Virus record (IMG/VR): IMGVR_UViG_2531839433_000003
Length of the DNA: 21,842 bases
DNA from: a virus
Taxonomy: Duplodnaviria; Heunggongvirae; Uroviricota; Caudoviricetes
Strand: one strand, 5' to 3'
Shown here: positions 1 through 19,222 of the stretch, in pieces
Position numbering within the stretch: position 1 is the first letter of the stretch
Layout: each line of letters begins with the position of its first letter
Made by a program: the position numbers and the translations under genes
Notes under the pieces: generated by a model
Databases searched by the model: none
The model's input: only the letters and a program-made list of their open reading frames with translations
What the model was told of the DNA's origin: nothing

Positions 1-1053
1 TTACGGGGTAATGCCAACCGCTGCCGCCACTTTGTCGCCACTTGGCAATGTTGCCAGAGGATTGAAACGGAGCGCCGTTTCCAGATGATCCGGTGCCAGA
101 TGTGCGTAACGCATAGTCATTTTTATATCGTGGTGTCCGAGAATTTTTTGTAAGGCCAGGATGTTTCCACCCGACATCATGAAGTGCGCCGCAAACGTAT
201 GGCGCAGAACGTGTGTCAGTTGACCGCGAGGGAGCACGATAGACGTTTTTTCCATCACGGATAAAAATTGAAAATAGCAGTCTGTGAAGAAATTGAACCC
301 ATCAAGCGCCATGATCTCTTCGTAAAGCTCTTTACTGATAGGGATGCTTCTGTTTTTCTTCCCCTTCGTTCTTACAAAGGTAATTCGGTATTTGGTCACT
401 TGCGAGCGGGTAAGATTTATTGCTTCTCGCCAGCGTGCGTCTGTGCTTAGGCATATCTTGACTACCAGTGCCAGAATTGGGTCCTGACGTTTGCAATCAG
501 CCAGCAGTTCAACAATCTGCTCATGGGTAAGCCATGCCATTTCTTTTTCTGCGATGGTGAATTTTCGCATGTTCTCCAGTGGGTTCGGATACGACCATTC
601 GCCCAGGCGGGATAGTTCGCTAAAAACACTACTTAGATAGCTTTGCTCCAGGTTAATGGTGACCGGGCTTGCTCCTTTCTTCCATTTCTCGCTGAAGTAG
701 ATCTCTCCTGTCAGGCGTTTATCTCTATAGTGGGCAAACATTTTAGAGGTGAGATCGGTTGCAAGGGGATTGCCCAGAGCGTCAACCATCAACAGCAGTT
801 TGTCATAGACATGCTGCCCAGCTGTCAGAGATTTACCATGTAGTTTGAACCATAGCTCAACCACGTCTTTCAATGTCCGACGATCCACTGGTTCGCCCAG
901 CCAGGGCTTTGCTTCGGTTTCTTCCATCGTGTGACGCTCAAAAGCCAGAGCTTCGCCTTTAGTGGCGAATTGTTTACGCACACGACGCCCACTACGTCCG
1001 GCGGGGTAACATTCGCAAAGCCATTTCCCTGTGGTGAGTTTTCGTACTGCCAT
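1..1053 (-). CDS. int: Tyrosine integrase, P2/186 family; the last 13 codons are encoded by the att core plus host flank
   Basis: 350 aa ORF whose translation resembles P2 Int along its length, including the C-terminal catalytic region (LTHVLRHTFAAHF...GHHDIKMTMRYAHL). Sits at the prophage left end, transcribed toward the att repeat. Confidence 0.88.
   Translation of the reverse strand: MAVRKLTTGKWLCECYPAGRSGRRVRKQFATKGEALAFERHTMEETEAKPWLGEPVDRRTLKDVVELWFKLHGKSLTAGQHVYDKLLLMVDALGNPLATDLTSKMFAHYRDKRLTGEIYFSEKWKKGASPVTINLEQSYLSSVFSELSRLGEWSYPNPLENMRKFTIAEKEMAWLTHEQIVELLADCKRQDPILALVVKICLSTDARWREAINLTRSQVTKYRITFVRTKGKKNRSIPISKELYEEIMALDGFNFFTDCYFQFLSVMEKTSIVLPRGQLTHVLRHTFAAHFMMSGGNILALQKILGHHDIKMTMRYAHLAPDHLETALRFNPLATLPSGDKVAAAVGITP
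19..40. repeat. attL core: 22-bp direct repeat cgctgccgccactttgtcgcca, matching 18988..19009 with one mismatch
   Basis: Read directly: identical at 21 of 22 positions to 18988..19009. One copy lies inside the int 3' end, the other immediately after the ogr stop, which is where a P2-type att lies. Confidence 0.7.
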
Positions 1054-1058
1054 AAAGA

Positions 1059-1078
1059 AGCCCTCATATCAGAGGGCT
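1059..1078 (-). terminator. Stem-loop between the HEPN gene and int; possible attenuator or weak terminator
   Basis: 7-bp perfect inverted repeat agccctc / gagggct with a 6-nt loop. On the minus strand it is followed by a partly T-rich tract and overlaps the int ribosome-binding site. Confidence 0.3.
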
Positions 1079-1141
1079 AAATTTAACTGTGCTTATATAC
1101 AGTGGTCAATGTATGATTTCATTAAAACAGACAAGGGTGTG

Positions 1142-1777
1142 CTATAAATCTGCTCTTAAATTATTTTCAGGGTCATTAGCGATATTTCTTTGTGAATTAT
1201 TAACTAAATCAGAAAATGTATTATCTCGGTCGTTAGATTTAGTTAATCCAATATTCGTATTTGTCGCTTCTAATTCAAGTATTGATGACTCCATCTTCTG
1301 AATAATGGCTACACTATCTATAAAATAGTCGAAAATATATTGAAATGATACTGTGGGGCTTTTCCCATGAGCGAAATCATTTCTGGCTCTATTTAAAGAT
1401 TTCAACGAATCACGTAATTTATTTGAATGCGGATCGTTCTTGATTTTGTCCTTAAAGTTGTTACACCAGTTATTATCAAATGAACCAAGTGCCTTACAAA
1501 TATTATCGTAATTAGGGTTCATTGAACTATTTCTGAATTTTTCATCAATGAATCTTTGTATTTGTTCACTATGTTGATCATATTTATGATCGCTAATGAT
1601 TGTTTTGAAAGAATATTCAATGGTTCCGCAGGTTCTAATAATTGAATATCGTGTTAAATATTTAACAATAGTTGTAGTGGGGCCAGAAGATTCTATCATC
1701 TTCTCTATACTCTCAAGTTCCTTTAAACAATCTATAATGCTATTTTTAGCATTATTATTAACGATATTGAATGCCAT
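1142..1777 (-). CDS. HEPN-motif protein (R-x4-6-H), predicted RNase effector; resembles the MAE_28990/MAE_18760-type HEPN family
   Basis: Motif LNRARNDFAHGKS (RNxxxHG) in the C-terminal third of an AT-rich ORF. GGAG lies 7 nt upstream of the ATG at 1777; the ORF track's longer start at 1810 has no ribosome-binding site. Overlaps the DUF262 gene by 20 nt. Confidence 0.55.
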   Translation of the reverse strand: MAFNIVNNNAKNSIIDCLKELESIEKMIESSGPTTTIVKYLTRYSIIRTCGTIEYSFKTIISDHKYDQHSEQIQRFIDEKFRNSSMNPNYDNICKALGSFDNNWCNNFKDKIKNDPHSNKLRDSLKSLNRARNDFAHGKSPTVSFQYIFDYFIDSVAIIQKMESSILELEATNTNIGLTKSNDRDNTFSDLVNNSQRNIANDPENNLRADL

Positions 1778-2912
1778 AAAGAAACTCCAGTGCCATTGAA
1801 ATTCTTCCATGTATATTTTCTATCTGCATTGTACCAGATGTGATATGTGACCGAAATGTCTGATTTTGTAGTAACTCATTTCTTTTATGCTCTAGATCGT
1901 TAGTGTTTATATCTTCACCTGAATTTAATGCAATGGATGTTGCGACATATAATGCATCAAAAATGGTTGGATAAAAACGACGACGTATACGTGATGGATC
2001 TGATTGGATTATATTAAAGAATGCATCTGGTCCTATATTATCATGAATAAAATTAATGGTGTTTTCAAAATCGGTTTTAATGGTGTCGATCATGTCAGAG
2101 GTGTTATTTGCTTTATCACCCATATATTCATTAAGGAGTTTTTTTAGCGAAATATTTGCTGGTTCATGACTCTTTATTTTCTGCGTGTTAAGAGCCAAGC
2201 CTCTTAGAATGAATTCCATATCTCTCATTCGTGCATCTGGTTTATTAGAACCGAATAAAGTACGCCATTTGATATTATTGTTTAGTTCTATCAATAGAGT
2301 ATTTAATTTCCCTTGATATACGCAATTACGTATTTCTTGAGCCATTAGTGAACGTCCACCAGTATTTATACGCTCAAAAATTTGATATAGGCTAGTATCA
2401 TCGTTCGACGGAACGGTTTGCTCAAAGATTATAGCGTGTATAGTTGTTGAGCGAATTTTCTTTTTTTCTGAAACTGTAAGTTCATTAAAGGCCTTACCAC
2501 GCCATTTTGCATTAATTTTTCTACTATCGGAAAGTTTAAAGACTCTACTATCTTTTGACCATATACCTGTCACATAATCATAGACAGTCATGATTCTCTG
2601 AAAACCATCTATAATGAGTTTGTTTTCGTCAGACGTATTTGCTAAAAAAATACTCGGAACAGGAAGACCTAGCAATAATGAGTCTATAAATCTACTGGCT
2701 TCGACTTTATCCCAAACATAATTTCTTTGAAGTTCTGGTTTCTGAAGTTCGCCCTCATCATACATTGTAATAAGTTCTCTAAAAGATAAATCGGCCCCCC
2801 ATGAGTTTATATTGTATAAATCATCATTTGAGTAAGAATCGTTCTGTTCTTCTTCGATTATCTCTATTGTGTCCTCAAGAGAATTATTATTGATATAATT
2901 GCTGTCAGTCAT
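1758..2912 (-). CDS. DUF262 protein (ParB-like / GmrS N-terminal NTP-binding domain), no fused HNH/DUF1524 domain
   Basis: Motifs PELQRNYVW and IIDGFQR (the DGQQR-type motif) near the N-terminus. Start chosen at MTDSNY (ATG 2910..2912), which has GAGG 5 nt upstream and sits 1 nt after the CI-like stop codon. Confidence 0.72.
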   Translation of the reverse strand: MTDSNYINNNSLEDTIEIIEEEQNDSYSNDDLYNINSWGADLSFRELITMYDEGELQKPELQRNYVWDKVEASRFIDSLLLGLPVPSIFLANTSDENKLIIDGFQRIMTVYDYVTGIWSKDSRVFKLSDSRKINAKWRGKAFNELTVSEKKKIRSTTIHAIIFEQTVPSNDDTSLYQIFERINTGGRSLMAQEIRNCVYQGKLNTLLIELNNNIKWRTLFGSNKPDARMRDMEFILRGLALNTQKIKSHEPANISLKKLLNEYMGDKANNTSDMIDTIKTDFENTINFIHDNIGPDAFFNIIQSDPSRIRRRFYPTIFDALYVATSIALNSGEDINTNDLEHKRNELLQNQTFRSHITSGTMQIENIHGRISMALEFLYGIQYR

Positions 2913-2913
2913 T

Positions 2914-3864
2914 TTAACCTCTAACATTATTAATGGATAATACGATCTTTGCAATAAATTCGATTTCGTTTATTGAACATTCAAAAACTATGTTTTTATT
3001 TTTTACTTGAATTTTTTCATTAGGTAATTTAGTGATTGTTCGAATACTGATATCTCCATCAATACCAACGATCCACTCGCCATCTATAATATTATTGAAT
3101 CTTTTTTCACAAATGTAAAAGTTATTTACATTTTCAATCAAACAAGGAAATATCGTATTTTCAGGTAACAGATTTTTATCAAATATCGAGTTCCCGCTCT
3201 CAATTAATTTTGCATTATTTAGAGTAAACTTTGGTATATTTATACAGTTTAAACTGCTATTTTTTTCTATTTTATCTCCTTTCCCAAAGGCTAACCACGT
3301 GATGGATACTCCTGTTTCGATAGCACACTGAATTACCCAATCAGCAGGAAAAGTATCACGCATATATCGTGTGGCTAACGTGCTTTTTGAAATACCAAGG
3401 TGATCAGCTAAGGCTTGACGTGTCTTGTAACCGTAAGCTTCAACAATTCGTTCTATTACTGCTTTTCCTCCATGAGTGAAATTCATGTGGATTTCATTAT
3501 CGAACAGAGTGGGGGAAGAGTGAACTTTGTCGCAAAGTCCATCTTCGGTTTGTTTTTCAGCATGTTGTTCTAGTGAAGAAGATGACATTCTTTCTTTAAC
3601 ACCTGAACCAAATGCTAGCCATTCAATTGATGCGCCTGTCTCCATCGAGCAGATAACAACCCAATCTGCTGGAAATGTATCGCGGGCATATCTGTTAGCC
3701 ATCGTGCTTTGGGAAATACCTAGGTGATTACAGAATGCCTGGCGTGACTTGAAGCCATAAGCCATGAGGATCCGCTCAATTACTTTCTGACCACCGCGAT
3801 TCTGTATGACAGCGGCTTTCATATCGTCATTCATATGGCGAAATGTGAATTTTTGAGTTGACAT
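2914..3864 (-). CDS. CI-like repressor with two tandem Phage_CI_repr-type HTH domains and an AT-rich C-terminal domain
   Basis: Two internally repeated segments (around residues 14-88 and 120-195) share the pattern ERI..AYG.K.RQA...HLGIS.ST.A.RY.RDTFPADWV..C..ETG.S..WLAFG.G, which resembles the phage 186 CI N-terminal domain. Divergent from the Apl-like gene, in the cI position. Confidence 0.65.
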   Translation of the reverse strand: MSTQKFTFRHMNDDMKAAVIQNRGGQKVIERILMAYGFKSRQAFCNHLGISQSTMANRYARDTFPADWVVICSMETGASIEWLAFGSGVKERMSSSSLEQHAEKQTEDGLCDKVHSSPTLFDNEIHMNFTHGGKAVIERIVEAYGYKTRQALADHLGISKSTLATRYMRDTFPADWVIQCAIETGVSITWLAFGKGDKIEKNSSLNCINIPKFTLNNAKLIESGNSIFDKNLLPENTIFPCLIENVNNFYICEKRFNNIIDGEWIVGIDGDISIRTITKLPNEKIQVKNKNIVFECSINEIEFIAKIVLSINNVRG

Positions 3865-3886
3865 ATTCTTTATGCGAACCTATTCT
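3858..3886 (+). promoter_or_regulatory. Candidate rightward early promoter: TTGACA, 17-nt spacer, TATTCT
   Basis: Perfect -35 hexamer at 3858..3863 and a -10-like TATTCT at 3881..3886 upstream of the Apl-like gene; overlaps the CI-like start codon. No transcript data. Confidence 0.35.
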
Positions 3887-3888
3887 CC

Positions 3889-3918
3889 GTTTTGTGATGT
3901 TGTTATCACGATTAAAAC
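3889..3918. promoter_or_regulatory. Nested palindrome GTTTT-GTGAT-N6-ATCAC-gatt-AAAAC; candidate repressor/Apl operator
   Basis: Inverted repeats read directly in the cI/apl divergent intergenic region. Confidence 0.3.
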
Positions 3919-3952
3919 CAGCTCACCACAAGCTAAAAGGAGATGTTGCATC

Positions 3953-4174
3953 ATGACCCCTAACATTTCAATAACTCTGAATACACCACACGTCACAATC
4001 GAGCGTTATAGCGAACTTACTGGTCTTTCAATCGACACAATCAACGATATGCTGGCAGATGGTCGCATCCCTCGGCATCGTCTTCGTAAAGACAAAAAAA
4101 GAGAAAAGGTAATGATCAACCTTGCTGCTCTTACCGTTGATGCACTTACTGATTGCAATGTTGTATTCAACTAG
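3953..4174 (+). CDS. apl: Apl/Cox-like small HTH excisionase/regulator
   Basis: 73 aa, first rightward gene opposite the CI-like gene, GGAG upstream, HTH-like segment [24 protein letters not shown]. Position matches 186 apl / P2 cox. Confidence 0.55.
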
Positions 4175-4206: not shown

Positions 4207-4716
4207 ATGTTTGATTACCAAGTTTCCAAACATCCACATTTTGATGAAGCCTGTCGTGCATTCGCGTTGCGCCACAACCTGGTGCAACTGGCAGAACGTG
4301 CAGGCATGAATGTGCAGATTCTGCGGAACAAGCTGAACCCAGCTCAACCTCATTTATTAACCGCACCAGACATCTGGCTGCTTACCGATCTGACTGAGGA
4401 TTCAACGCTGGTAGATGGTTTTCTGGCACAGATTCATTGTCTGCCATGTGTACCAATTAATGAGGTGGCAAAAGAGAAACTGCCACATTACGTCATGAGT
4501 GCAACCGCAGAGATCGGGCGTGTTGCGGCAGGTGCGGTATCTGGCGATGTAAAAACCAGTGCAGGTCGTCGTGATGCTATCAGCAGCATTAACTCTGTAA
4601 CACGACTGATGGCGCTGGCTGCTGTTTCATTGCAGGCCCGTTTACAGGCTAATCCTGCGATGGCGAGCGCAGTTGATACCGTGACTGGCCTCGGTGCTTC
4701 ATTCGGTTTGCTGTGA
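4207..4716 (+). CDS. cII: CII-like transcriptional activator (phage 186 CII type)
   Basis: 169 aa, the same length as 186 CII. N-terminus [20 protein letters not shown] and internal [28 protein letters not shown] match my recollection of 186 CII. Confidence 0.65.
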
Positions 4717-4723
4717 GGTGCTT

Positions 4724-4924
4724 ATGCTTACGAAAGAACCATCATTTGCATCGCTGCTGGTAAAGCAAAGCCCGGCAATGCACTACGGTCACGGCTGGAT
4801 CATGGGTGAGGATGGTAAACGCTGGCATCCATGCCGTTCACAAGATGAATTGCTGGCAGAACTATCTACGAAAAAACGGGGGAACAAATGGCTATTAATG
4901 GCGCTGCAGCAACTGTTCCATTAA
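4724..4924 (+). CDS. Hypothetical early-operon protein, 66 aa
   Basis: ORF with GAGGTG 5 nt upstream of the ATG, in the position of 186 fil. Confidence 0.4.
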   Translation: MLTKEPSFASLLVKQSPAMHYGHGWIMGEDGKRWHPCRSQDELLAELSTKKRGNKWLLMALQQLFH

Positions 4925-5229
4925 GCCCCGGTGAACGCCTGAATGGACTTAATCACATTGCGGAGTTAAGGGCGAAAGTTTTTGGCCTGAATATTGAGTC
5001 AGAGCTTGAGCGGTTTATTAAAGATATGCGTGATCCACGGGATATCAATAATGAACAAAATAAACGGGCACTGGCTGCCATATTCTTTATGGCAAAAATT
5101 CCAGCTGAACGTCATAGCATCAGCATTAATGAGCTGAACACTGACGAAAAGCGGGAGCTGATTAAAGCAATGAATCATTTTCGTGCAGTGGTGAGCTTAT
5201 TTCCCAGACGGCTAACCATGCCGAATTAA
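4888..5229 (+). CDS. Hypothetical early-operon protein, 113 aa
   Basis: ORF with GGGGGAA ribosome-binding site; overlaps the previous ORF by 37 nt. Confidence 0.4.
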   Translation: MAINGAAATVPLSPGERLNGLNHIAELRAKVFGLNIESELERFIKDMRDPRDINNEQNKRALAAIFFMAKIPAERHSISINELNTDEKRELIKAMNHFRAVVSLFPRRLTMPN

Positions 5230-5296
5230 CCAACTAATGAAATTAATGGCGTAAACCCGCCGGGCATCCCTTTATCTAAATTCAGGAGAATTGATT

Positions 5297-5530
5297 ATGC
5301 GTAATATTGAAACCCTCACGACTAAAACCGGACCGGATGATGCAGGGCTTAATATTTTACTGACAGAGGCTCGTCTGGAAGAACGCCGGGCAAGGGCTGA
5401 AGCAATGGCAGCTCGCCTTGATAACCTGGCGTGTCATATCACATCCCGCCAACTAAACCACGTCGAAGCGGCAGAACTGCTGCGTGTGACTGCTGAAGCA
5501 ATCCAGAACGAAGCGCAGGAGATCCACTGA
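5297..5530 (+). CDS. Hypothetical early-operon protein, 77 aa
   Basis: AGGAG 8 nt upstream of the ATG; stop overlaps the next start (TGATG). Confidence 0.4.
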   Translation: MRNIETLTTKTGPDDAGLNILLTEARLEERRARAEAMAARLDNLACHITSRQLNHVEAAELLRVTAEAIQNEAQEIH

Positions 5531-5757
5531 TGGCTGATGCAATGGATCTCGTACAGCAGCGAGTTGAAGAAGAACGCCAACGTCATATCCGTGCTGCCCG
5601 TGCCAAAACGCCGGGCGTGTCCCGCGTGCTTTGCGTTGAGTGTGAAGCGCCAATTCCGCCAGCACGCCGCTGTGCCATTCCGGGGGTGCAGCTTTGCATT
5701 ACCTGTCAGGAAATCGCAGAGCTGAAAGGCAAACATTACAACGGAGGTGCTGTATGA
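5530..5757 (+). CDS. TraR/DksA-family C4 zinc-finger protein
   Basis: CxxC-N17-CxxC (CVEC...CITC) in a 75 aa protein; ATGA overlap with the following dam gene. Confidence 0.7.
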   Translation: MADAMDLVQQRVEEERQRHIRAARAKTPGVSRVLCVECEAPIPPARRCAIPGVQLCITCQEIAELKGKHYNGGAV

Positions 5758-6611
5758 GCACCATCCTGAAATGGGCGGGAAATAAAACCGCCATTATGTC
5801 CGAACTGAAAAAACACCTTCCTGCTGGCCCGCGACTGGTTGAACCTTTCGCGGGTTCCTGTGCTGTGATGATGGAGACGGATTACCCCAGCTATCTGGTT
5901 GCGGATATTAATCCTGATTTAATCAACCTCTATAAAAAGGTTGCTGCTGATTGTGAATCGTTTATATCTCGCGCCAGAGTTTTATTTGAGATCGCAAACA
6001 GGGAGGTGGCTTATTACAACATAAGGCAGGAGTTTAATTACTCCACTGAAATTACTGATTTCATGAAAGCGGTATATTTCCTGTATCTCAATCGTCACGG
6101 TTACCGTGGTTTATGTCGCTATAACAAGAGCGGGCATTTCAACATTCCCTACGGTAATTATAAAAATCCGTATTTCCCTGAAAAAGAAATTCGCGCATTT
6201 GCAGAAAAGGCCCAGCGAGCAACGTTTATCTGCGCCAGCTTTGATGAAACGCTGGCGATGTTGAAGGCGGGGGATGTGGTGTATTGCGATCCGCCGTATG
6301 ACGGTAAGTTTTCCGGCTATCACACTGATGGTTTCACTGAAGATGACCAGTATCACCTGGCATCTGTTCTTGAACATCGGTCATCAGAAGGACATCCGGT
6401 CATTGTTTCTAACAGTGACACATCCCTGATCCGTTCGCTGTATCGCAATTTTACTCACCACTACATCAAGGCAAAACGCAGCATCGGTGTGGCAGCTGGC
6501 GAGGGTAAATCAGCAACAGAAATCATTGCTGTTTCCGGGCCGCGCTGCTGGGTGGGATTTGATTATTCGCGTGGCGTGGATAGTTCTGCCGTGTACGGAG
6601 TACGTGCATGA
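5754..6611 (+). CDS. dam: DNA adenine methyltransferase, Dam-like (GATC N6-adenine)
   Basis: N-terminal LKWAGNK SAM-binding motif and DPPY catalytic motif (DNA 6288..6299); collinear resemblance to E. coli Dam. Translationally coupled on both sides. Confidence 0.85.
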
Positions 6612-9022
6612 GCCATGCCGATATGAACAACTGCTGCGGCTTTAACGAGGCTGCCGCATCGTTCTCATGGAACAGCCCGAAAAAGGCCATTAACCCTTAT
6701 CTGGACCCGGCGGAAGTTGCGCCGGTTTCTGCGCTTTCAAACCTGATCACTCTGTACGCTGCCGATAACGAGCAGGAACAGCTGCGCCGCGAGGCACTGA
6801 GTGATCAGGTCTGGGAGCGTTATTTCTTTAATGAATCCCGTGATCCTGTCCAGCGCGAAATGGAGCAGGATAAGCTCATTAGTCGGGCAAAGCTGGCGCA
6901 TGAGCAGCAGCGTTTTAATCCAGATATGGTCATTCTGGCGGACGTCAATGCCCAGCCTTCCCATATCAGCAAGCCGCTGATGCAACGTATTGAATACTTC
7001 AGCAGCCTTGGCAGGCCAAAGGCTTATTCCCGCTATTTGCGTGAGACGATTAAGCCATGTCTGGAACGGCTGGAGCATGTACGCGACAGTCAGCTATCCA
7101 CTTCTTTTCGCTTTATGGCAAGCCATGAAGGGCTGGACGGCCTGCTGATTCTGCCTGAAATGAGTCAGGATCAGGTGAAACGCCTGTCCACCCTTGTTGC
7201 TGCGCATATGAGCATGTGCCTTGATGCAGCTTGTGGCGATTTGTATGCCACCGATGACGTTAAGCCTGAAGAAATCCGCAAGACATGGGAAAAGGTGACA
7301 GCAGAAACCCTGCGACTGGATGTCATACCGCCTGCGTTTGAGCAACTCCGCCGGAAAAGAAACCGCCGTAAACCCGTGCCTTATGAACTCATTCCGGGTT
7401 CGCTGGCGCGTATGTTGTGCGCCGACTGGTGGTACCGGAAATTATGGAAGATGCGTTGCGAATGGCGGGAAGAGCAGTTGCGTGCTGTTTGCCTGGTCAG
7501 CAAAAAAGCATCTCCCTATGTCAGCTATGAAGCCGTGATGCATAAACGTGAGCAGCGCCGTAAGTCGCTGGAGTTTTTCCGTTCTCATGAACTGGTGAAC
7601 GAAGACGGCGACACGCTGGACATGGAGGATGTGGTAAACGCCAGCAGCAGCAACCCTGCGCATCGCCGCAATGAGATGATGGCCTGTGTTAAAGGTCTGG
7701 AGCTTATCGCGGAAATGCGTGGTGACTGCGCCGTTTTCTACACCATCACCTGTCCGTCACGTTTCCATTCCACGCTAAATAACGGCAGGCCCAACCCGAC
7801 CTGGACAAATACGACGGTAAGACAAAGCAGTGATTATCTGGTCGGCATGTTTGCTGCATTTCGTAAGGCGATGCACAAAGCCGGATTGCGCTGGTATGGC
7901 GTGCGGGTGGCTGAGCCGCATCATGACGGTACAGTTCACTGGCACCTGTTGTGTTTTATGCGCAAAAAAGATCGCCGCGCCATTACTGCTTTGTTGCGTA
8001 AGTTTGCCATTCGTGAAGACCGCGAGGAGCTGGGTAATAACACGGGACCACGCTTTAAGTCTGAGCTGATAAACCCGCGCAAAGGTACGCCAACAAGCTA
8101 CATCGCGAAATACATCAGTAAGAACATTGACGGGCGTGGTCTGGCTGGCGAGATCAGCAAGGAAACGGGTAAATCCCTGCGTGATAACGCTGAATACGTT
8201 AATGCCTGGGCGTCTCTGCATCGTGTTCAGCAATTCCGCTTCTTTGGCATTCCGGGGCGTCAGGCTTACCGTGAACTGCGATTGCTGGCTGGTCAGGCGG
8301 CAAGGCAACAGGGGGACAAAAAAGCAGGTGCGCCGGTACTGGATAACCCGCGCCTTGATGCAATCCTGGCTGCTGCTGATGCTGGTTGTTTTGCCACCTA
8401 CATCATGAAGCAGGGCGGCGTACTGGTTCCCCGCAAATATCACCTCATCAGAACTGCTTATGAAATCAACGAAGAACCGACCGCATATGGCGATCACGGT
8501 ATTCGTATTTATGGCATCTGGTCACCCATTGCAGAGGGCAAGATCTGCACTCATGCGGTGAAGTGGAAAATGGTTCGTAAGGCCGTTGACGTTCAGGAGG
8601 CGGCAGCCGACCAGGGCGCTTGCGCCCCTTGGACTCGTGGCAATAACTGTCCCCTTGCTGAAAATTTGAGCCAACAAGGGAACGACAAATCAGCTGATGG
8701 GGATACCAGAACGGACATTACCCGCATGGATGACAAGGAGTTGCACGATTACCTGCACAGTATGAGCAAAAAAGAGCGCCGGGAACTGGCTGCAAGGTTA
8801 CGCCAGGTGAAACCGAAACGGCGTAAAGACTACAAACAGCGAATTACAAACCATCAGCGACAGCAGCTCGTCTATGAACTGAAGTCCAGAGGATTTGATG
8901 GCAGCGAGAAAGAAGTCGATTTACTCCTTCGCGGCGGCAGTATTCCGTCAGGAGCAGGCCTGCGTATCTTCTATCGGAACCAGCGTTTGCAGGAAGATGA
9001 TAAGTGGCGGGAGCTGTATTAA
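6608..9022 (+). CDS. Rolling-circle replication initiator, P2 gpA / 186 RepA family
   Basis: 804 aa with the metal-binding HWHLL motif (7936..7950) and active-site tyrosine motif YIAKYISK (8099..8122). Start overlaps the dam stop. Confidence 0.85.
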
Positions 9023-9116: not shown

Positions 9117-9132
9117 CTGTAAATATAAACAG
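9117..9132. promoter_or_regulatory. LexA box, CTGT-N8-ACAG (ctgtaaatataaacag)
   Basis: Matches the SOS-box core; lies about 45 nt upstream of the 9175 ORF, inside an AT-rich promoter-like region. Confidence 0.5.
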
Positions 9133-9373: not shown

Positions 9374-9607
9374 ATGCGCATTGAAATAATGATCGATAAA
9401 GAGCAGAAGATTAGCCAGTCTACCCTGGACGCCCTTGAATCAGAGCTTTACCGCAATCTGCGCCCCCTGTATCCCAAAACGGTAATTCGCATCCGCAAAG
9501 GTAGCTCTAACGGTGTGGAACTGACCGGACTGCAACTGGACGAAGAAAGAAAACAAGTGATGAAAATTATGCAGAAGGTGTGGGAAGACGACAGCTGGCT
9601 GCATTAA
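9374..9607 (+). CDS. DinI-family protein (186 Tum-like C-terminal domain)
   Basis: 77 aa beginning MRIEIMIDKEQ and ending KVWEDDSWLH, which parallels E. coli DinI (MRIEVTIAK...ETWESADDWF). GAGGTGA ribosome-binding site. Confidence 0.65.
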   Translation: MRIEIMIDKEQKISQSTLDALESELYRNLRPLYPKTVIRIRKGSSNGVELTGLQLDEERKQVMKIMQKVWEDDSWLH

Positions 9608-9766: not shown

Positions 9767-10192
9767 CTACTTAATTGAGTCCAGTAACAAGTTACAGTTA
9801 CTCTCATTGTAGAGAGAACGAGCAATTAGTGTTACCTGCTTTCCATTTATTCCCGGCTTATCCCATAACACAGCTTCTTGCGACGCCACAAATTCAGCAT
9901 AATCAATTATGCGTTGTTCGTGATCTGGTTCCTCATAGCCAAAGTATGAGAGCGCATCGTTGTAAGCGTGGTAAGCTGCTTTCTGTAATATCTTGATATC
10001 GGCTGTAGGTACTTGCCCCGTGTAGCTAGGATCTAATTGTGTGCTACTGCCATAGAATGCACATGAAAGGTAAGATATTGATTTCTGTTGAGCTTTAGTT
10101 CCTTTCTCATAGTTTTTAGCTGTTACCGCCTGAACTGGGACGCTAACAAAGCTTGCAACCAGAATTAAAATTAATACGTAAAAGCTTTTCAT
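9767..10192 (-). CDS. Secreted/periplasmic protein of unknown function, 141 aa, Sec-type signal peptide
   Basis: N-terminus MKSFYVLILILVASFVSVPVQA followed by a polar mature region; GAGG 5 nt upstream. AT-rich, leftward, at the position and orientation P2 uses for old. Confidence 0.6.
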   Translation of the reverse strand: MKSFYVLILILVASFVSVPVQAVTAKNYEKGTKAQQKSISYLSCAFYGSSTQLDPSYTGQVPTADIKILQKAAYHAYNDALSYFGYEEPDHEQRIIDYAEFVASQEAVLWDKPGINGKQVTLIARSLYNESNCNLLLDSIK

Positions 10193-10780: not shown

Positions 10781-11380
10781 TTGTCCGAAAATGACATTAA
10801 AGTAGTCGCCTTTAATGTCGTAAGCATGAAGGACAGAGAATTGAACTTAGAGCAGATTGCCAGTCAAAGTATAAGTAACCTTCAGTTTCTCCTCGATACT
10901 TTGAAGATGCCGTTGGCTGTTGGTCCAATCAGTGATGAAGACTATGTGATCCTGACCACAGGATATGCTCAGCTAGAATGGGATTATGGTTTTTCTCGGT
11001 TTGGCAATCGAAGTGATAAGTTTGAATTTTGTTTGAAGCTCCTTGCGGGGCCACTTAGGCATATCCCTTCTGGCGCAGCTATGTGCACCTTTGACGAGGA
11101 CGCTGGAGTCATAGAGATCCATTTTGTGGAATCTTTTGTGAAAGATGATGACGTAGAGCACCCTCTTTACGGCAACATGTTCATGGTTACATTGTGGGCG
11201 GTATATCTTTTTGGTAGCGCGGTTGGGTGTCAAGAGATTCGGATCCCTGAAGCCCTGAATCAAAAAGTTGCTGACCACTATAAAAAATTTGGTTTTAAAG
11301 GTGATATAAGCTTGCTTTCGGCACCTTTTGCTACAATAACTGATGTAGTAAGACGCTACATTACTTCTAAGAAACAGTAG
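10781..11380 (+). CDS. Hypothetical protein, 199 aa from the TTG at 10781 (184 aa if the ATG at 10826 is used)
   Basis: Long ORF in the AT-rich region between cos and the portal gene; start codon uncertain and no clear ribosome-binding site. No family recognised. Confidence 0.45.
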   Translation: MSENDIKVVAFNVVSMKDRELNLEQIASQSISNLQFLLDTLKMPLAVGPISDEDYVILTTGYAQLEWDYGFSRFGNRSDKFEFCLKLLAGPLRHIPSGAAMCTFDEDAGVIEIHFVESFVKDDDVEHPLYGNMFMVTLWAVYLFGSAVGCQEIRIPEALNQKVADHYKKFGFKGDISLLSAPFATITDVVRRYITSKKQ

Positions 11381-11459: not shown

Positions 11460-11639
11460 ATGACTATGACGCATAGTGACAAGAAAGCTCAGAAGCATTA
11501 CTCAGTATCTGATGTTTTCAGCCGTATGGGCGTCGCGATGGAAGAACTACTTCAAGCGGCCCCACATATGATGCAGGACTGCAAATTTGAAGGAAATGAG
11601 CTGCATGGTAAGCTCAAAGAAAAGCAGAAAGCTGCTTAA
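11460..11639 (+). CDS. Small hypothetical protein, 59 aa
   Basis: GAGG 5 nt upstream of the ATG; followed within 25 nt by a strong intrinsic terminator. Below the ORF-track length cut-off; translated by hand. Confidence 0.5.
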   Translation: MTMTHSDKKAQKHYSVSDVFSRMGVAMEELLQAAPHMMQDCKFEGNELHGKLKEKQKAA

Positions 11640-11845: not shown

Positions 11846-13417
11846 TTACTGAGAGCTCAGATCAACTTTCCAGGGCAACAGATCGCGTACCCGGTTTGCC
11901 GGCCAGTCCTGGATATGTTCAATGACGTAGCGCAGCCACTTTTCTGGCTCCACATTGTTCAGACGGCATGTGCCGATCAGCGAGTACAACACCGCCGCAT
12001 GTTCACCACCGCTGTCGGAACCCGCGAACATCCACTTTTTCCGGCCTACGGCCACTCCCCGTAAGGCGTTCTCTGCGATGTTGTTGTCGATTTCCACCCA
12101 GCCATTACTGCAGTACACGTTCAGTGCATCCCACTGTTTCAGCAGGTATGCGAACGCTTTTGCCGTATCTGAGTGACGCGACAGTGTTTTCATCTGTTGC
12201 TGTATCCAGTCATACAGTGACTGCATCAGTGGCGCGGCTCTGGTTTTTCTTGCCGCCAGACGCTGTTCTGCTGAACAGCCCCGGACCTCTGCCTCGATGG
12301 CATACAGTTCACCGATACGCTGCAGGGCTTCCGTGGTGATGTCGGTGGGCGCTCTTGCATGCACATCGTGGATTTTTCTCCGGGCATGAGCCATACACGC
12401 GGCTTCCGTTATTCTGCCGGATTCGTATAACGCCCGGTAACCACCGTAAGCATCGGCCTGAAGCACACCGCTGTAACCGGCCAGGTGATTTTGTGGATGG
12501 ATACCTTTCCGGTCCGGACTGTACGCGAACCAGACCGCCGGGGGCATCTGTGAACCGGCGTTACGGTCATCACGGACGTAGACCCACAGCCGGGCTGTCC
12601 GGGTTTTACCGCTGCCCGGCTCCTGGACCGGGACGGGGATATCATCAGCATGGACTTTACCGGGCATCAGCACATACTGGCGCAGGACGTCATACAGCGG
12701 CTCCAGTAGTTCAGCAACGGCACCTGTCCAGCGCCCCAGTGTGGCACGGCTCAGCTCCACACCCTGACGGCGGTATATCTCTGACTGGCGGTATAACGGC
12801 AGATGGTCTGCATATTTTCCGGTGACGACATGGGCCAGGAGCCCCGCTCCGGCATAACTGCGTGCAATGGGTTTTGAAGGTACTGGTGCCTGCACGATAT
12901 GGTCGCACCGACAACAGGCCAGTTTCGGACGTTGTGTTTCGATAACCTTAAAGGCGCTGCTGATAAGCTCCAGTTGCTCTGACACATCACATCCCAGAGA
13001 ACTGAGTTCACCACCACAGGCAGGACAGCATTCCTCTTCCGGCCGGATAACCCGGGTTTCACGGGGAAGTGAGGCCGGTAACGGTTTACGGGCTGAAGAC
13101 TGGCGCAGGGCGGATGGCAGTACCGGGTCATATTGCTCACCCAGCGTTTCCGCCATTTCTTCCTGAAGTGCGCTGATTCGCTCCTGTGCTTCCTGTATCT
13201 GCCGTTCGGTTTTTGCACGAAGTTTTTCTGAGCTTTTACCGAACTGCATACGTTGCAGTTTCGCAACCAGCGCCTTCAGCCGGTTGATTTCGGAAGCATA
13301 AGCCGCCACCCGCTGTGAGAGCAGGCGGTTGTATTCAGCCATCTGGCGTATGGTGTCCTGTTGCGTCTGCAACAGTGCCCGCAGGCGGGCGTTCTCATGA
13401 GCAAGTGAGGTGTCCAT
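11846..13417 (-). CDS. tnpC: IS66-family transposase (TnpC)
   Basis: 523 aa with an N-terminal coiled-coil/leucine-zipper region and a Cys-rich segment, as in IS66-family TnpC. Confidence 0.85.
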
Positions 13418-13436
13418 ATCCTCACTTTACAACGGG

Positions 13437-13784
13437 TTATATGCGGATTCCAGCGCGTTCCGTTCGTTTCGGGTGCTTCCAGTTGATACCTTCAAGAAGC
13501 ATGGATAACTGAGCCGGAGTAAGGTGCACCTTGCCGTCACGGGTGACTGGCCAGACGAAGCGGCCCCGCTCCAGGCGTTTGGTGAAGAGGCACAGTCCGT
13601 CACTGTCAGCCCACAACACTTTTATCTGGTCACCCCGGCGTCCGCGGAAGATGAACAGGTGTCCGGAGAACGGGTCATCCTTCAGGACGTTCTGAACTTT
13701 TGATGCCAGGCCGTTAAAGCCATTTCGCATATCGGTGATACCTGCAACCAGCCAGATACGCGAACCTGCAGGGAGAGATATCAT
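13437..13784 (-). CDS. tnpB: IS66-family accessory protein TnpB (Orf2)
   Basis: 115 aa, MISLPAGSRIWLVAGITDMR..., as in IS66 Orf2; ATGA overlap with the upstream ORF. Confidence 0.8.
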   Translation of the reverse strand: MISLPAGSRIWLVAGITDMRNGFNGLASKVQNVLKDDPFSGHLFIFRGRRGDQIKVLWADSDGLCLFTKRLERGRFVWPVTRDGKVHLTPAQLSMLLEGINWKHPKRTERAGIRI

Positions 13785-14461
13785 CAGTGGCTGCTCCCTT
13801 TTATTTCGCGGATAAGTGTCTGTAATAACGCCGGCGTCAGTTTACCTTTAAGCCTGAGAGTTCCGGCCGGCAGAACCAGCTCACAACACAGACTGTCGGA
13901 CGGTGTATTTATCTGCTCTGGTTCCTGTGCGGGGGCCGGGATTTTATTATCCGGCTCCGGCGTTAACGTCACGGGAAGCAGTGCCGGCATATTTTTTCCG
14001 GAAGGCAGCAGGCCACCTTTCCGGTATTGATGGCGCCAGTTGAAGAGCAGGTTATCGTTGATTCCGTTTTCCCGGGCGATCTGCGCCACACAGGCTCCGG
14101 GCTGCAGTGACTGCTCCACTAAGGCGATTTTAAACTCATAAGGGAAGTTGGGCCGCCGGGGACGTTTTTTTACCACGGGGGCTTCGGATATAACGGTGCT
14201 TTCAGGACGTACGACTGGTACCGTGGAAAATTGTCCGTAAAGGCAGGCATCAAGTTCCTGCTCCGACATGCCTGCGGGCAAAGGCCACGAAAGGCCAGCT
14301 CTCCGAAAGCGCACGAACATACTACAAACTGTTGATTTTGGTACACCCAGGCGACGCCCGGCCACAACCCGGGGTAAATGTTCTTCAAAGTGAAGACGTA
14401 AAGCTTCAGTGATCCAGGTCCGGTGTTTCATACGATAGTGTCCATTAAAAATGATGGACAT
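13784..14461 (-). CDS. tnpA: IS66-family accessory protein TnpA (Orf1); start uncertain
   Basis: First ORF inside the IS, leftward, coupled to tnpB. The true start may be the internal Met (MKHRTW...). Confidence 0.6.
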   Translation of the reverse strand: MSIIFNGHYRMKHRTWITEALRLHFEEHLPRVVAGRRLGVPKSTVCSMFVRFRRAGLSWPLPAGMSEQELDACLYGQFSTVPVVRPESTVISEAPVVKKRPRRPNFPYEFKIALVEQSLQPGACVAQIARENGINDNLLFNWRHQYRKGGLLPSGKNMPALLPVTLTPEPDNKIPAPAQEPEQINTPSDSLCCELVLPAGTLRLKGKLTPALLQTLIREIKGSSH

Positions 14462-18194: not shown

Positions 18195-18572
18195 ATGAAG
18201 AAGAATACCCGCTTTGCTTTTAACGCTTACCTGCAGCAGCTGGCGCGTCTGAACGGTGTGGCAGTTGAAGAACTGTCCAGCAAGTTCACCGTGGAGCCGT
18301 CTGTGCAGCAGACGCTGGAAGACCAGATCCAGCAGTCCGCCGCTTTCCTGACGCTGATTAACGTCACGCCAGTGACTGAGCAGTCCGGTCAGCTGCTGGG
18401 GCTGGGAGTTGGCAGCACCATTGCCGGAACCACTGACACCACCGCGAAAGAGCGTGAACCTGTCGATCCGACGCTGATGGTCGATGTGGAATATAAATGC
18501 GAGCAGACCAACTTTGACACGGTGCTGACCTACGCGAAGCTGGACCTGTGGACGGGGTGGGCTCTTAGATGA
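18195..18572 (+). pseudogene. Major capsid protein (P2 gpN type), N-terminal about 125 aa only
   Basis: Begins MKKNTRFAFNAYLQQLARLNG...KFTVEPSVQQTL like P2 gpN, but terminates after 125 aa where about 357 are expected. Confidence 0.7.
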
Positions 18573-18573
18573 T

Positions 18574-18678
18574 GCGGAATGGACCATTACGACTCTGACG
18601 CATACCGTCAGCCCCGATAACGGTTTTACAACCAGTCTGGAGCTTGAAGTGAGGATTGATGATTTCGAAATGGAATGA
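18574..18678 (+). pseudogene. Possible C-terminal remnant of tail gene D fused out of frame to the capsid fragment
   Basis: The +1 frame reads ...TITTLTHTVSPDNGFTTSLELEVRIDDFEME then stop, about 90 nt upstream of ogr, where D lies in P2. Assignment is by position and frame only. Confidence 0.3.
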
Positions 18679-18768
18679 TTCTTCGCAATGGAGAACTTTT
18701 AAGTTTGCAAAATGGAATAATGCGGTATCATTATTGTGAATTTAGCAAAAATGGGGAGAACTCGAAAA

Positions 18769-18987
18769 ATGATGATTTGCCCACTGTGTGGAAGTGCCGC
18801 CCATACTCGCAGCAGTTTTCAGGTATCTTCATTGACCAAAGAACGTTACAACCAGTGCCAGAACATTAACTGCAGCCATACTTTTGTTACCCATGAAACT
18901 TTTGTTCGTTCGATTGCAACGCCAAAAGAGTCAAATCCGGTTCAGCCGCATCCAATGAAATCAGGACAGGTGGCGCTCTCTCTTTGA
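18769..18987 (+). CDS. ogr: Ogr-type zinc-finger late transcription activator
   Basis: 72 aa, MMICPLCGSAAHTRSS...KERYNQCQNINCSHTF, parallel to P2 Ogr (CPLC...KERYHQCQNVNCSATF); last prophage gene before attR. Confidence 0.85.
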   Translation: MMICPLCGSAAHTRSSFQVSSLTKERYNQCQNINCSHTFVTHETFVRSIATPKESNPVQPHPMKSGQVALSL

Positions 18988-19009
18988 CGCTGCCGCCATT
19001 TTGTCGCCA
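18988..19009. repeat. attR core: 22-bp direct repeat cgctgccgccattttgtcgcca
   Basis: See attL; begins at the base after the ogr stop codon. Confidence 0.7.
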
Positions 19010-19074
19010 TCGTTAAAAAACAGTGTTTCTAACATCATGATTTTAAACAGCTTAAATTTCAGGCAACAAAAAAC

Positions 19075-19111
19075 CCATCAACCTTGAACCGAAATGGCGG
19101 GGTTGATGGGC
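19075..19111 (-). terminator. Probable ybjL rho-independent terminator
   Basis: 10-bp stem cccatcaacc / ggttgatggg; on the minus strand it is followed by six T. Confidence 0.45.
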
Positions 19112-19222
19112 TCCACAAAATGGGGACATCAAAGAAAAGCAGTGGCACTAATTAAGACTGATGCCCTGCGGAAAAGTTCTGCGGTTGTGCAAAAAAATTT
19201 CATTTTCAGGGCAACTTCAGTT

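Follow-up and report, generated by a model that had tools for sequence, protein, structure and literature searches.

What does a DNA adenine methylase do in a prophage when its gene lies directly before that of the replication initiator, with stop and start codons overlapping at both ends, and when the same element encodes a DUF262 protein? For the locus studied here, contained in a window of 21,842 nucleotides (the whole stretch of DNA that was analysed), a preliminary description had proposed that the methylase is locked to the early replication operon, that it may act in anti-restriction or regulate phage promoters, and, as a speculation, that it is functionally linked to the DUF262 protein. 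The dam gene and its module are already known, being annotated in RefSeq and in isolated phages and occurring in about a quarter of the complete E. coli genomes (1243 of 5426). The outcome of our analysis is negative for the link to DUF262, and it favours a simple evolutionary interpretation. In a single phage family, members with dam have a normal GATC content, while GATC is depleted three- to four-fold in members that lack the gene (five- to eight-fold in P2 and 186).

The prophage and its DUF262-HEPN pair

The element in the window is a defective 186/P2-type (Peduoviridae) prophage of E. coli, with an IS within its portal gene and a deletion of the capsid-to-tail genes. Virions cannot be made from it, so that dam is without a current phage-level function in this particular element. 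The features discussed below are collected in Table 1. The gene order, DUF2732 gene, DksA/TraR-type zinc finger, slot gene and A, joined by overlaps, is that of the 186/P2-type early operon. The DUF2732 gene is also annotated by RefSeq in an identical locus and has homologues at the same place in 186 and P2, the TraR-like protein scores 63.2 bits against TIGR02419 (cut-off 59.7), and gpA is annotated as replication endonuclease in RefSeq. The CI repressor, which has an internal duplication of 66% identity, heads the lysogenic strand (cI-DUF262-HEPN-int), and the pR-like site occupies the position of the annotated pR of phage 186, a likeness by which it would function as a promoter.

Profile matches and gene coordinates agree with the earlier placing of a Dam-family methylase between a TraR-like zinc finger and the replication initiator; the range 5530-6611 given for this feature comprises two genes, TraR and dam. 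The real start of dam is the ATG at 5754, and the TTG at 5694 in a mechanical list of open reading frames lies upstream and is not the true start. Three antisense open reading frames (5434-5736, 6111-6377 and 6523-6690, all on the minus strand) had no matches in a Pfam search and are taken as spurious. The sole match to a known RNA family, RybB, lies outside the prophage.

Table 1. Positions of genes, candidate sites and predicted mRNA structures in the window
Feature	Position	Strand	Basis
HEPN (RiboL-PSP) protein, separate defence cargo	1142..1777	-	PF18735 at 2.6e-19
DUF262 / GmrSD_N protein, 384 aa, separate defence cargo	1758..2912	-	PF03235 at 2.7e-26
CI repressor, 186-type, 316 aa, duplicated HTH domain	2914..3864	-	PF07022 at 8.5e-59 in two stretches; PF16452
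pR-like early lytic promoter (TTGACA-17-TATTCT)	3858..3886	+	consensus scan, 10/12 matches; adjoins cI start
DUF2732 gene, first in the overlapping chain	5297..5530	+	PF10809 at 8.7e-29
TraR/DksA-type C4 zinc-finger protein, 75 aa	5530..5757	+	PF01258 at 2.3e-09
Predicted mRNA hairpin, dam SD GGAGG paired; dam AUG and most of TraR UGA in loop	5743..5766	+	RNA fold
dam, 285-aa orphan Dam-family (D12 class) N6-adenine DNA methyltransferase	5754..6611	+	PF02086, TIGR00571
Predicted mRNA hairpin, gpA AUG in 3' arm, SD partly in stem	6590..6610	+	RNA fold of 6550-6660, z = -2.32
gpA rolling-circle replication initiator, 804 aa	6608..9022	+	PF05840 at 4.9e-126
Predicted origin nick region within gene A (CGCCCCTTGGACTCGTGGCAATAACTGT)	8623..8650	+	aligned to annotated ori of P2, 186

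A DUF262 protein is indeed encoded in the same element, by a gene that overlaps that of a HEPN protein by 20 nt. Among PADLOC profiles, the former matches NsnA best (1.4e-65) and also PD-T4-2_A (2.1e-55), and the latter matches PD-T4-2_B (1.6e-08). The pair is not of the GmrSD type, as only PF03235 was matched in the DUF262 protein and the DUF1524 nuclease domain is absent from it. Nor is it a Menshen (NsnABC) system, as neither NsnB nor NsnC was found, no ATPase gene lies between cI and int, and the only partner is the HEPN protein. A DUF262 protein with an adjacent HEPN protein and without DUF1524 is the two-gene architecture of PD-T4-2 from ECOR65, which is listed as 'DUF262, HEPN' and has been validated against T4. 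The prophage pair differs in being a divergent version and in its location in a 186-type prophage, where it separates cI from int. Judged by its domains, it is a PD-T4-2-type defence cargo that is unrelated to dam.

A functional link, by which Dam would for example mark self DNA or modulate sensing by DUF262, might be argued from the presence of both in one prophage, from the DUF262 domains of modification-dependent systems (GmrSD, SspE), and from some Menshen operons that adjoin solitary methylases. We nevertheless regard such a link as very improbable, as the two differ strongly in abundance, with the pair in only 10 of the 5426 genomes that include 1243 with dam. In none of 80 close dam-positive viral loci was a DUF262 gene found within 3 kb upstream, and of 13 distant loci with a DUF262 homologue, 12 have the HEPN partner while just one has a D12 methylase within 10 kb. 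Also, the pair has a GC content of 32%, compared to about 50% for the backbone, and it sits on the lysogenic strand, on the arm of the lysis-lysogeny switch opposite to the repressed lytic operon that contains dam. Finally, PD-T4-2 protects K-12 from a 1.8-kb clone that contains no methylase, and the pair, as noted, does not have the DUF1524 of GmrSD.

Overlapping junctions and the translation of gene A

The overlaps of the type ATGA that had been noted at both ends of dam can be read directly in the sequence. The TraR stop codon (5755-5757) overlaps the dam ATG (5754-5756), and the dam stop codon (6609-6611) overlaps the gpA ATG (6608-6610), while one junction further upstream the TGA of the DUF2732 gene (5528-5530) shares a base with the TraR ATG (5530-5532, TGATG). 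Both dam junctions overlap in all of 80 close relatives from IMG/VR, one of which has TTGA at the dam start, and also in a Klebsiella phage with a Dam of 72% identity (ATGA, and GTGA at dam/A). The overlaps are conserved and not accidental. Each gene has its own Shine-Dalgarno sequence (AGGAG at 5516-5520 for TraR, GGAGG at 5743-5747 for dam and GGAG at 6596-6599 for gpA), so that coupling need not be obligatory.

Downstream of the pR-like site (3858-3886), no sigma-70-like promoter was predicted on the plus strand up to gene A. Candidates for an independent promoter or terminator around dam were rejected as matches at chance level, and a hairpin with T-tract inside TraR (5669-5692) did not exceed shuffle expectation. 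Two other predicted hairpins involve the starts of dam and A. The fold of 5695-5805, which includes the first, has a z-score of -2.69 and was equalled by 2 of 200 shuffles; its predicted counterpart in the Klebsiella relative is weaker. For 186, SEN4 and the Klebsiella relative, the predicted folds also have the A start paired, and in P2 it is found at a hairpin-loop edge (z from -0.7 to -2.5), a comparison that is qualitative and covers four divergent phages, the 80 IMG/VR relatives being 97-100% identical and too close for covariation. The z-scores are modest, and in some relatives the hairpins are weaker.

In phage 186 the slot before A is filled by other genes, and every junction of the chain overlaps by 4 nt. 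P2 has a similar chain with overlaps of 1, 1, 4 and 11 nt and another gene in the slot, orf83 being the one that adjoins A. The GenBank record of 186 states that 'translation to end of orf84 appears necessary for translation of A protein' and also lists a terminator within A, active when A is untranslated. As the coupling occurs in 186 and P2 with unrelated slot genes, it tells more about the translation of A than about dam being locked in. The chain of overlaps is a property of the operon backbone and not of dam. The proposal that dam is locked to the early replication operon is in keeping with the lack of a predicted internal promoter, with the hairpins and with the 186 record, but the coupling on which it was built is not particular to the methylase.

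The methylase and the GATC content of related phages

The protein belongs to the same D12/alpha-class fold family as E. coli Dam (EcoDam; PDB 2G1P, 4GOL and others), with 258 bits (1.4e-76) against PF02086 (cut-off 22) and 321 bits against TIGR00571 (cut-off 114.85). Residues 4-263 could be aligned with structure 2G1P (E = 2.7e-73), and T4 Dam was matched at 3.6e-17. Like EcoDam it is an orphan: its best PADLOC match is 'orphan methyltransferase' (2.9e-111), and its neighbours are the TraR-like protein and gpA rather than a restriction endonuclease, as would be found in a Type II restriction-modification system. With 288 bits it stays below the cut-off of 441 for the host-Dam equivalog NF008152, and by its sequence it is a member of a phage paralogue lineage and not the host gene. 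It also differs from EcoDam by an additional C-terminal tail of 22 aa and by its location in a repressed phage operon, coupled to the replication initiator, whereas EcoDam is encoded in a host operon. The host gene sits in the damX-dam operon.

The catalytic motif IV, DPPY, is found at residues 179-182 and aligns with D181-Y184 of EcoDam. All six of the base-contacting or intercalating EcoDam residues K9, Y119, L122, R124, P134 and Y138, whose roles are described in PMC4417163, are kept (as K6, Y117, L120, R122, P132 and Y136), and the equivalents of N126 and N132 are conserved as well. Motif I, which is FxGxG in the family, reads FAGSC (residues 32-36) with the second glycine replaced by cysteine, and two DNA-contact residues are changed (N120 to R118 and R137 to N135). 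The specificity is probably GATC. No enzymatic test of this Dam or a close relative was found in the literature, nor anything specific on this Dam lineage or on the GATC content of P2-like phages.

The departure in motif I and the two altered contacts, together with the unrelated genes, annotated as non-essential, that occupy the slot in 186 and P2, could suggest that the open reading frame encodes an inactive or non-GATC methylase and serves as a translated spacer that brings ribosomes to gene A. This is extremely unlikely, as dN/dS values of 0.10-0.33 over the whole protein indicate purifying selection, and as DPPY and the GATC-reading residues have been kept. FAGSC is shared with a Yersinia phage Dam that is only 54% identical, and the GATC-specific relief described next is confined to lineages with dam.

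GATC is strongly under-represented in the two dam-less reference phages, with observed/expected ratios of 0.20 in P2 and 0.13 in 186, and much less so in phage Cartapus (0.76) and in the prophage of the window (0.87), both of which carry dam. Among P2/186-type loci from IMG/VR, the median ratio is 0.29 without dam (n=153, range 0.10-0.71) and 0.97 with dam (n=99, range 0.52-1.31), a difference (Mann-Whitney p = 9e-41) that is correlative and concerns phylogenetically clustered loci, some of which may include host flanks, while those without dam could carry undetected methylases of other families. When only 186-type gpA loci are considered, the medians are 0.34 and 1.02. With dam itself masked, the contrast is seen for each of three divergent Dam lineages, and control palindromes of four bases do not differ between the two classes. 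It is also evident in a single orthologous gene, the terminase gene, with 11 GATC sites in the prophage and one each in P2 and 186. CCWGG is depleted whatever the class, with a slight rise in loci that have dcm, and gave no clear signal of a Dcm effect.

As correlative data, these values leave either direction of causality for the association. Since GATC is avoided in relatives without dam and not in those with it, it is most likely that the enzyme methylates GATC sites of phage DNA as this replicates, and by this reading of the sequences it would remove the cost of unmethylated sites. The contrast is in-vivo evidence for GATC specificity, albeit indirect and correlative. Counter-selection against GATC has been described for enterophages, as has the under-methylation of their rapidly replicating DNA (PMC5014478), and host Dam is reported in the literature to be rate-limiting for high-copy DNA.

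We favour, and consider likely, a process in which dam, located in the variable slot immediately before A in an early lytic operon under CI repression, serves to methylate GATC sites of replicating phage DNA, coupled to A by reinitiation and unrelated to the DUF262-HEPN pair. Ribosomes that end TraR would reinitiate at dam, and those that end dam would open the hairpin and reinitiate at A. Reinitiation along the chain would mean that the methylase and the replication initiator are made together and only after induction or infection, a timing proposed by analogy with 186. Phage Dam would keep rapidly replicating phage DNA methylated while host Dam is limiting, and so lift a cost that un- or hemimethylated GATC may incur through nicking by MutH, binding by SeqA or GATC-specific restriction in new hosts. 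With this cost lifted, members with dam could keep a normal GATC content, while those without it would have purged their sites. We infer the host factor behind the cost, and likewise the activity and specificity of the enzyme. All known hosts (E. coli, Klebsiella, Salmonella and Yersinia) carry Dam, so that a benefit of the phage enzyme has to be argued on kinetic grounds.

Anti-restriction is the function usually ascribed to phage Dam enzymes in the literature, and Dam might do nothing but pre-methylate progeny against systems of the MboI, DpnII or Sau3AI type, with mismatch repair and SeqA having no role. Restriction as the selective agent is equally compatible with the GATC contrast, and the Dcm-type methylase added in the same slot of some relatives suggests a general modification cassette. 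We find it rather unlikely that this is the whole function. In Dam-positive hosts, GATC-specific Type II systems would be lethal or absent, and phage DNA would largely be methylated anyway because these hosts carry Dam. The literature on GATC avoidance by enterophages points to MutH acting on under-methylated DNA (PMC5014478), and CCWGG is low irrespective of class, with the slight increase in dcm-positive loci mentioned above.

The other function that had been suggested, regulation of phage promoters, found no support, GATC being absent from the pR/pL switch; protection is favoured, if indirectly, by the comparison of phages with and without dam. Dam regulates cre and pac of P1, IS10 and gtr operons. 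In Salmonella, Dam is known to control prophage genes and the excision of SopE-phi, and the 5' part of gene A contains an inverted repeat with TGATCA in each arm (6732-6755 and 6796-6819). That Dam acts here as an epigenetic regulator of phage promoters, of the origin or of the lysis-lysogeny decision is quite improbable, however. The number of GATC sites is ordinary (80 observed, 85-94 expected), and they are neither enriched nor clustered. The pR/pL region (about 3800-4100) contains none, nor do the roughly 80 nt around the predicted ori nick, so that GATC was rejected as a regulatory signal. The prophage would already be methylated by host Dam, and a few regulatory sites would not account for a genome-wide GATC contrast. 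P2-like phages with and without dam offer a clean natural system for the question of whether MutH, SeqA or restriction selects against GATC in enterobacterial phages.

The slot before gene A in known phages

In the Peduoviridae, genes annotated as DNA adenine methylase likewise lie between A and the TraR-like gene or its counterpart in Escherichia phage Cartapus (CARTA_42), Klebsiella phages KP12, 4LV2017 and ST15-OXA48phi14.1, Salmonella phages SEN4 and SW3, and Yersinia phage vB_YenM_42.18. HP1 Dam has also been named in the literature among the Dam genes of this family. The 4-nt overlaps recur in Cartapus and the Klebsiella phages, whose Dam proteins are 72-99% identical to that of the prophage. 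SEN4 and SW3 have a divergent Dam (about 40% identity) together with a Dcm-type methylase, and there it is Dcm that overlaps A. A role of a Fels-2 Dam as retron trigger was considered and discarded, as Bobonis et al. name dam of E. coli, Salmonella and P1 and no P2-like phage Dam.

Phages 186 and P2 resemble the prophage in that the DUF2732 gene and a gene for a DksA-like zinc finger precede the slot genes and A, with a DUF5405 gene (orf81) between the first two in P2. In place of dam, the slot of 186 holds genes for a PAPS-reductase-domain protein, an RNase T-type exonuclease and DUF5405, and that of P2 holds DUF5405. One may speculate that the slot is an exchangeable cassette for DNA modification or processing whose translation gates that of the replication initiator, so that replication would not begin before the modifying enzyme has been made. 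We consider this doubtful and put it forward tentatively. If true, a lineage in which GATC has returned to normal density could no longer effectively replace dam, a genomic lock-in, and on derepression, SOS-inducible defective remnants such as this one could cause a brief over-methylation of the host chromosome and so disturb mismatch repair.

Outside this family, the Dam/Dmt enzymes of P1, T2/T4 and VT-2 are phage-borne GATC adenine methylases in Dam-positive hosts, as is the enzyme described here. P1 uses methylation for pac cleavage, and in the prophage there is no indication of a comparable methylation-dependent site. The enzymes of these phages differ from that of the prophage in sequence, with an identity of about 36% or less, and are encoded in different genomic contexts.

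GATC content and the role of dam

GATC is avoided in loci that lack dam and is not avoided in those that carry it. The dam-less phages P2 and 186 have whole-genome observed/expected ratios (O/E, second-order Markov expectation) of 0.20 and 0.13, against 0.76 in Escherichia phage Cartapus and 0.87 in the window's prophage. For the other 4-mer palindromes the ratio is mostly close to 1 in these four, with CTAG, GGCC and TATA lower in some. Among IMG/VR loci extending over 8 kb or more around gene A, analysed with the dam gene masked, the 153 classed as dam-less by the absence of Dam (methylases of other families may be present there) have a median GATC O/E of 0.29 (range 0.10–0.71), and the 99 that carry dam, three divergent Dam lineages among them, a median of 0.97 (range 0.52–1.31; Mann-Whitney p = 9e-41, for loci that are phylogenetically clustered and may in some cases include host flanks). 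Restricting the comparison to 186-type gpA loci gives medians of 0.34 (n = 76) without and 1.02 (n = 20) with dam. Control motifs (CATG, GTAC, TCGA, GGCC and others) show no difference in pooled value between the two classes. The terminase orthologue (63% amino-acid identity) contains 11 GATC sites in the window, against a single site in P2 and a single one in 186. All classes show CCWGG depletion (0.3–0.65; loci L107–L375, P2 and 186), with or without a Dcm-type gene.

The classical account of why enterophages select against GATC is that host Dam is limiting on high-copy DNA, and MutH acts on under-methylated DNA that has outpaced it. Because the contrast between the two classes fits this account, we favour a protective role: Dam, as a GATC methylase produced alongside the replication initiator, would keep replicating phage DNA methylated and so lift the cost of GATC sites, although causality between dam and GATC content could run either way. 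Anti-restriction had been one of two roles suggested in the preliminary description, and a protective role tied to GATC is upheld. The other was regulation of phage promoters, but the 80 GATC sites of the window (85–94 expected) are neither enriched nor clustered, and both the pR/pL switch and the surroundings of the predicted ori nick are free of them, which leaves a regulatory role unsupported. The contrast, occurring within a single phage family, offers a tidy natural test system.

Residues 4–263 of the enzyme align to E. coli Dam (E = 2.7e-73), DPPY is kept at residues 179–182, and equivalents of EcoDam K9, Y119, L122, R124, N126, N132, P134 and Y138 are conserved (residue roles from PMC4417163), whereas N120 and R137 are replaced by R118 and N135. 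Motif I reads FAGSC, as in a Yersinia phage Dam (54% identical). The protein scores above the Dam subfamily cut-off and below the host-Dam equivalog cut-off, its best PADLOC model is an orphan methyltransferase, and pairwise dN/dS among five dam alleles is 0.10–0.33. The deposited record of Yersinia phage vB_YenM_42.18 leaves an intact Dam ORF of 274 aa (~4300–5130 of locus L004) unannotated, showing in its place a gpA gene with an over-extended start and two short hypothetical ORFs.

The feature is already known, dam being a recognised backbone gene. Of 5426 complete E. coli genomes, 1243 have the 1410-bp module 5291–6700, annotated there as 'DNA adenine methylase'. It also turns up in 58 phage records, among which Klebsiella, Escherichia and Salmonella predominate, and over 600 IMG/VR stretches match the search patterns.

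The DUF262-HEPN pair and its prophage

The pair matches the PADLOC models PD-T4-2_A (2.1e-55), PD-T4-2_B (1.6e-08) and NsnA (1.4e-65), and lacks DUF1524, NsnB and NsnC. PD-T4-2, listed as 'DUF262, HEPN' from ECOR65, protects K-12 against T4 as a 1.8-kb clone. A functional link between dam and DUF262 had been proposed, and several observations leave it unsupported. The pair has 32% GC versus ~50% in the backbone, and just 10 of 5426 E. coli genomes have it; each of the three copies examined sits in this prophage at the same site. The 3 kb preceding dam contain no DUF262 gene in any of the 80 close dam-carrying viral loci. Thirteen distant loci with homologues (Bacteroidota, Lachnospiraceae, Methylococcaceae, an archaeon and others) retain the HEPN partner in 12 cases, the remaining match being partial and close to a contig end, and a D12 methylase lies within 10 kb in just one. 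Finally, the pair sits on the lysogenic strand between cI and int, packed close to cI, unlike dam, which belongs to the CI-repressed lytic operon.

The prophage is a defective 186/P2-type element, and a stretch identical to the window lies in the rcdA-ybjL interval of the E. coli TW11681 chromosome. The portal gene is interrupted by an IS66-family element (ISCro1-like tnpA, tnpB and transposase), and ~17 kb of structural genes have been lost where the truncated capsid gene N runs into what is left of tail gene D, so virion production by this copy is impossible. In the gpA-to-portal hotspot, occupied in P2 by tin and old, three ORFs without Pfam or PADLOC match could represent uncharacterised cargo.

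Features of the prophage in the window
Feature	Position	Strand	Remark
int	1-1053	-	
Direct repeat, 22 nt, 95% identical	19-40; 18988-19009		probable attL/attR; left copy within int 3' end
HEPN stop-int start spacer	1054-1141		88 nt
Hairpin	1078-1059		right before int ATG
Promoter-like site	1109-1080	-	weak
LexA-box-like palindrome CTGTGCTTATATACAG	1087-1102		overlaps promoter-like site
HEPN gene	1142-1777	-	
DUF262/GmrSD_N gene	1758-2912	-	
186-type CI	2914-3864	-	316 aa
pR-like site	3858-3886		
apl-like gene, cII, fil, DUF5347			in this order
DUF2732 gene	5297-5530		
TGATG overlap	5528-5532		
TraR-type zinc finger	5530-5757	+	
dam Shine-Dalgarno	5743-5747		
ATGA overlap	5754-5757		
dam	5754-6611	+	
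Hairpin	6590-6610		predicted RNA fold; A AUG in 3' arm
ATGA overlap	6608-6611		
gpA	6608-9022	+	
Inverted repeat, 24 nt	6732-6755; 6796-6819		TGATCA in each arm
ori nick	~8630		predicted
LexA box CTGTAAATATAAACAG	9117-9132		near-consensus
DinI/Tum-like gene	9374-9607		
Hotspot ORF	9767-10192	-	
Hotspot ORF	10826-11380	+	
Hotspot ORF	11460-11639	+	
IS66-family element	11846-14461		inside portal gene
Terminase, scaffold			
Truncated capsid gene-D remnant	~18195-18770		
ogr			
RybB sRNA gene	19065-19143	-	Rfam, 105 bits; ~55 nt beyond attR

In the CI repressor the 186-CI-type HTH domain is duplicated in tandem (aa 24–96 and 132–204, 66% identical), in contrast to the single-domain repressors of 186 and Cartapus (~190–210 aa); this long CI goes with the pair in each of the three E. 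coli copies examined. The elements between HEPN and int may reflect SOS-controlled int expression or a terminator brought by the cargo. The second LexA box precedes a small ORF and the DinI/Tum-like gene, a unit analogous to the SOS-controlled p95-tum antirepressor unit of 186, and by this analogy the defective prophage can probably still be derepressed by SOS.

Coupling within the early operon

The stop/start overlaps reported at both ends of dam are seen in the sequence, although the range given for them (5530–6611) spans two genes, TraR and dam; the TraR, Dam and gpA identities are curated profile matches. All 80 close IMG/VR relatives keep overlaps at both junctions (one with TTGA at the dam start), as do Cartapus and a Klebsiella phage (Dam 72% identical), the latter with GTGA between dam and A. 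The three starts from TraR to gpA each have their own Shine-Dalgarno. In RNA folds, that of dam is paired within a hairpin, with the dam AUG and the greater part of the TraR UGA in its loop (z = -2.69), and the A AUG is also in a hairpin (z = -2.32). Folds of three other phages, 186, SEN4 and the Klebsiella relative, pair the A start as well, and that of P2 puts it at a hairpin loop edge; z-scores in these four are modest. No plus-strand promoter is predicted between the pR-like site and A, and translation would proceed by reinitiation at the overlapping junctions.

Comparison with known phages supports the coupling of dam to its neighbours and indicates that it is a property of the operon, not specific to dam. 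According to the 186 record, translation of A appears to need translation to the end of orf84, and a terminator annotated within A is active when A is untranslated. The inverted repeat in the 5' part of A (fold of 6720–6830, z = -3.6) has a position similar to that of this translation-dependent terminator, tM1. The order in 186 is DUF2732, a DksA-like zinc finger, an exonuclease, DUF5405, orf84 (PAPS-reductase domain) and A, with a 4-nt overlap at every junction; in P2 it is orf80, orf81, orf82 (zinc finger), orf83 and A, and the overlaps range from 1 to 11 nt. Salmonella phages SEN4 and SW3 have a divergent Dam and a Dcm-type methylase, the latter overlapping A; in SW3, an ORF with a ParE-like toxin domain (4375–4602 of locus L006) lies between the two and overlaps both. 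Since 186, P2, SEN4 and SW3 hold different genes there, the slot before A is variable, and its last gene, whichever it is, is coupled to A.
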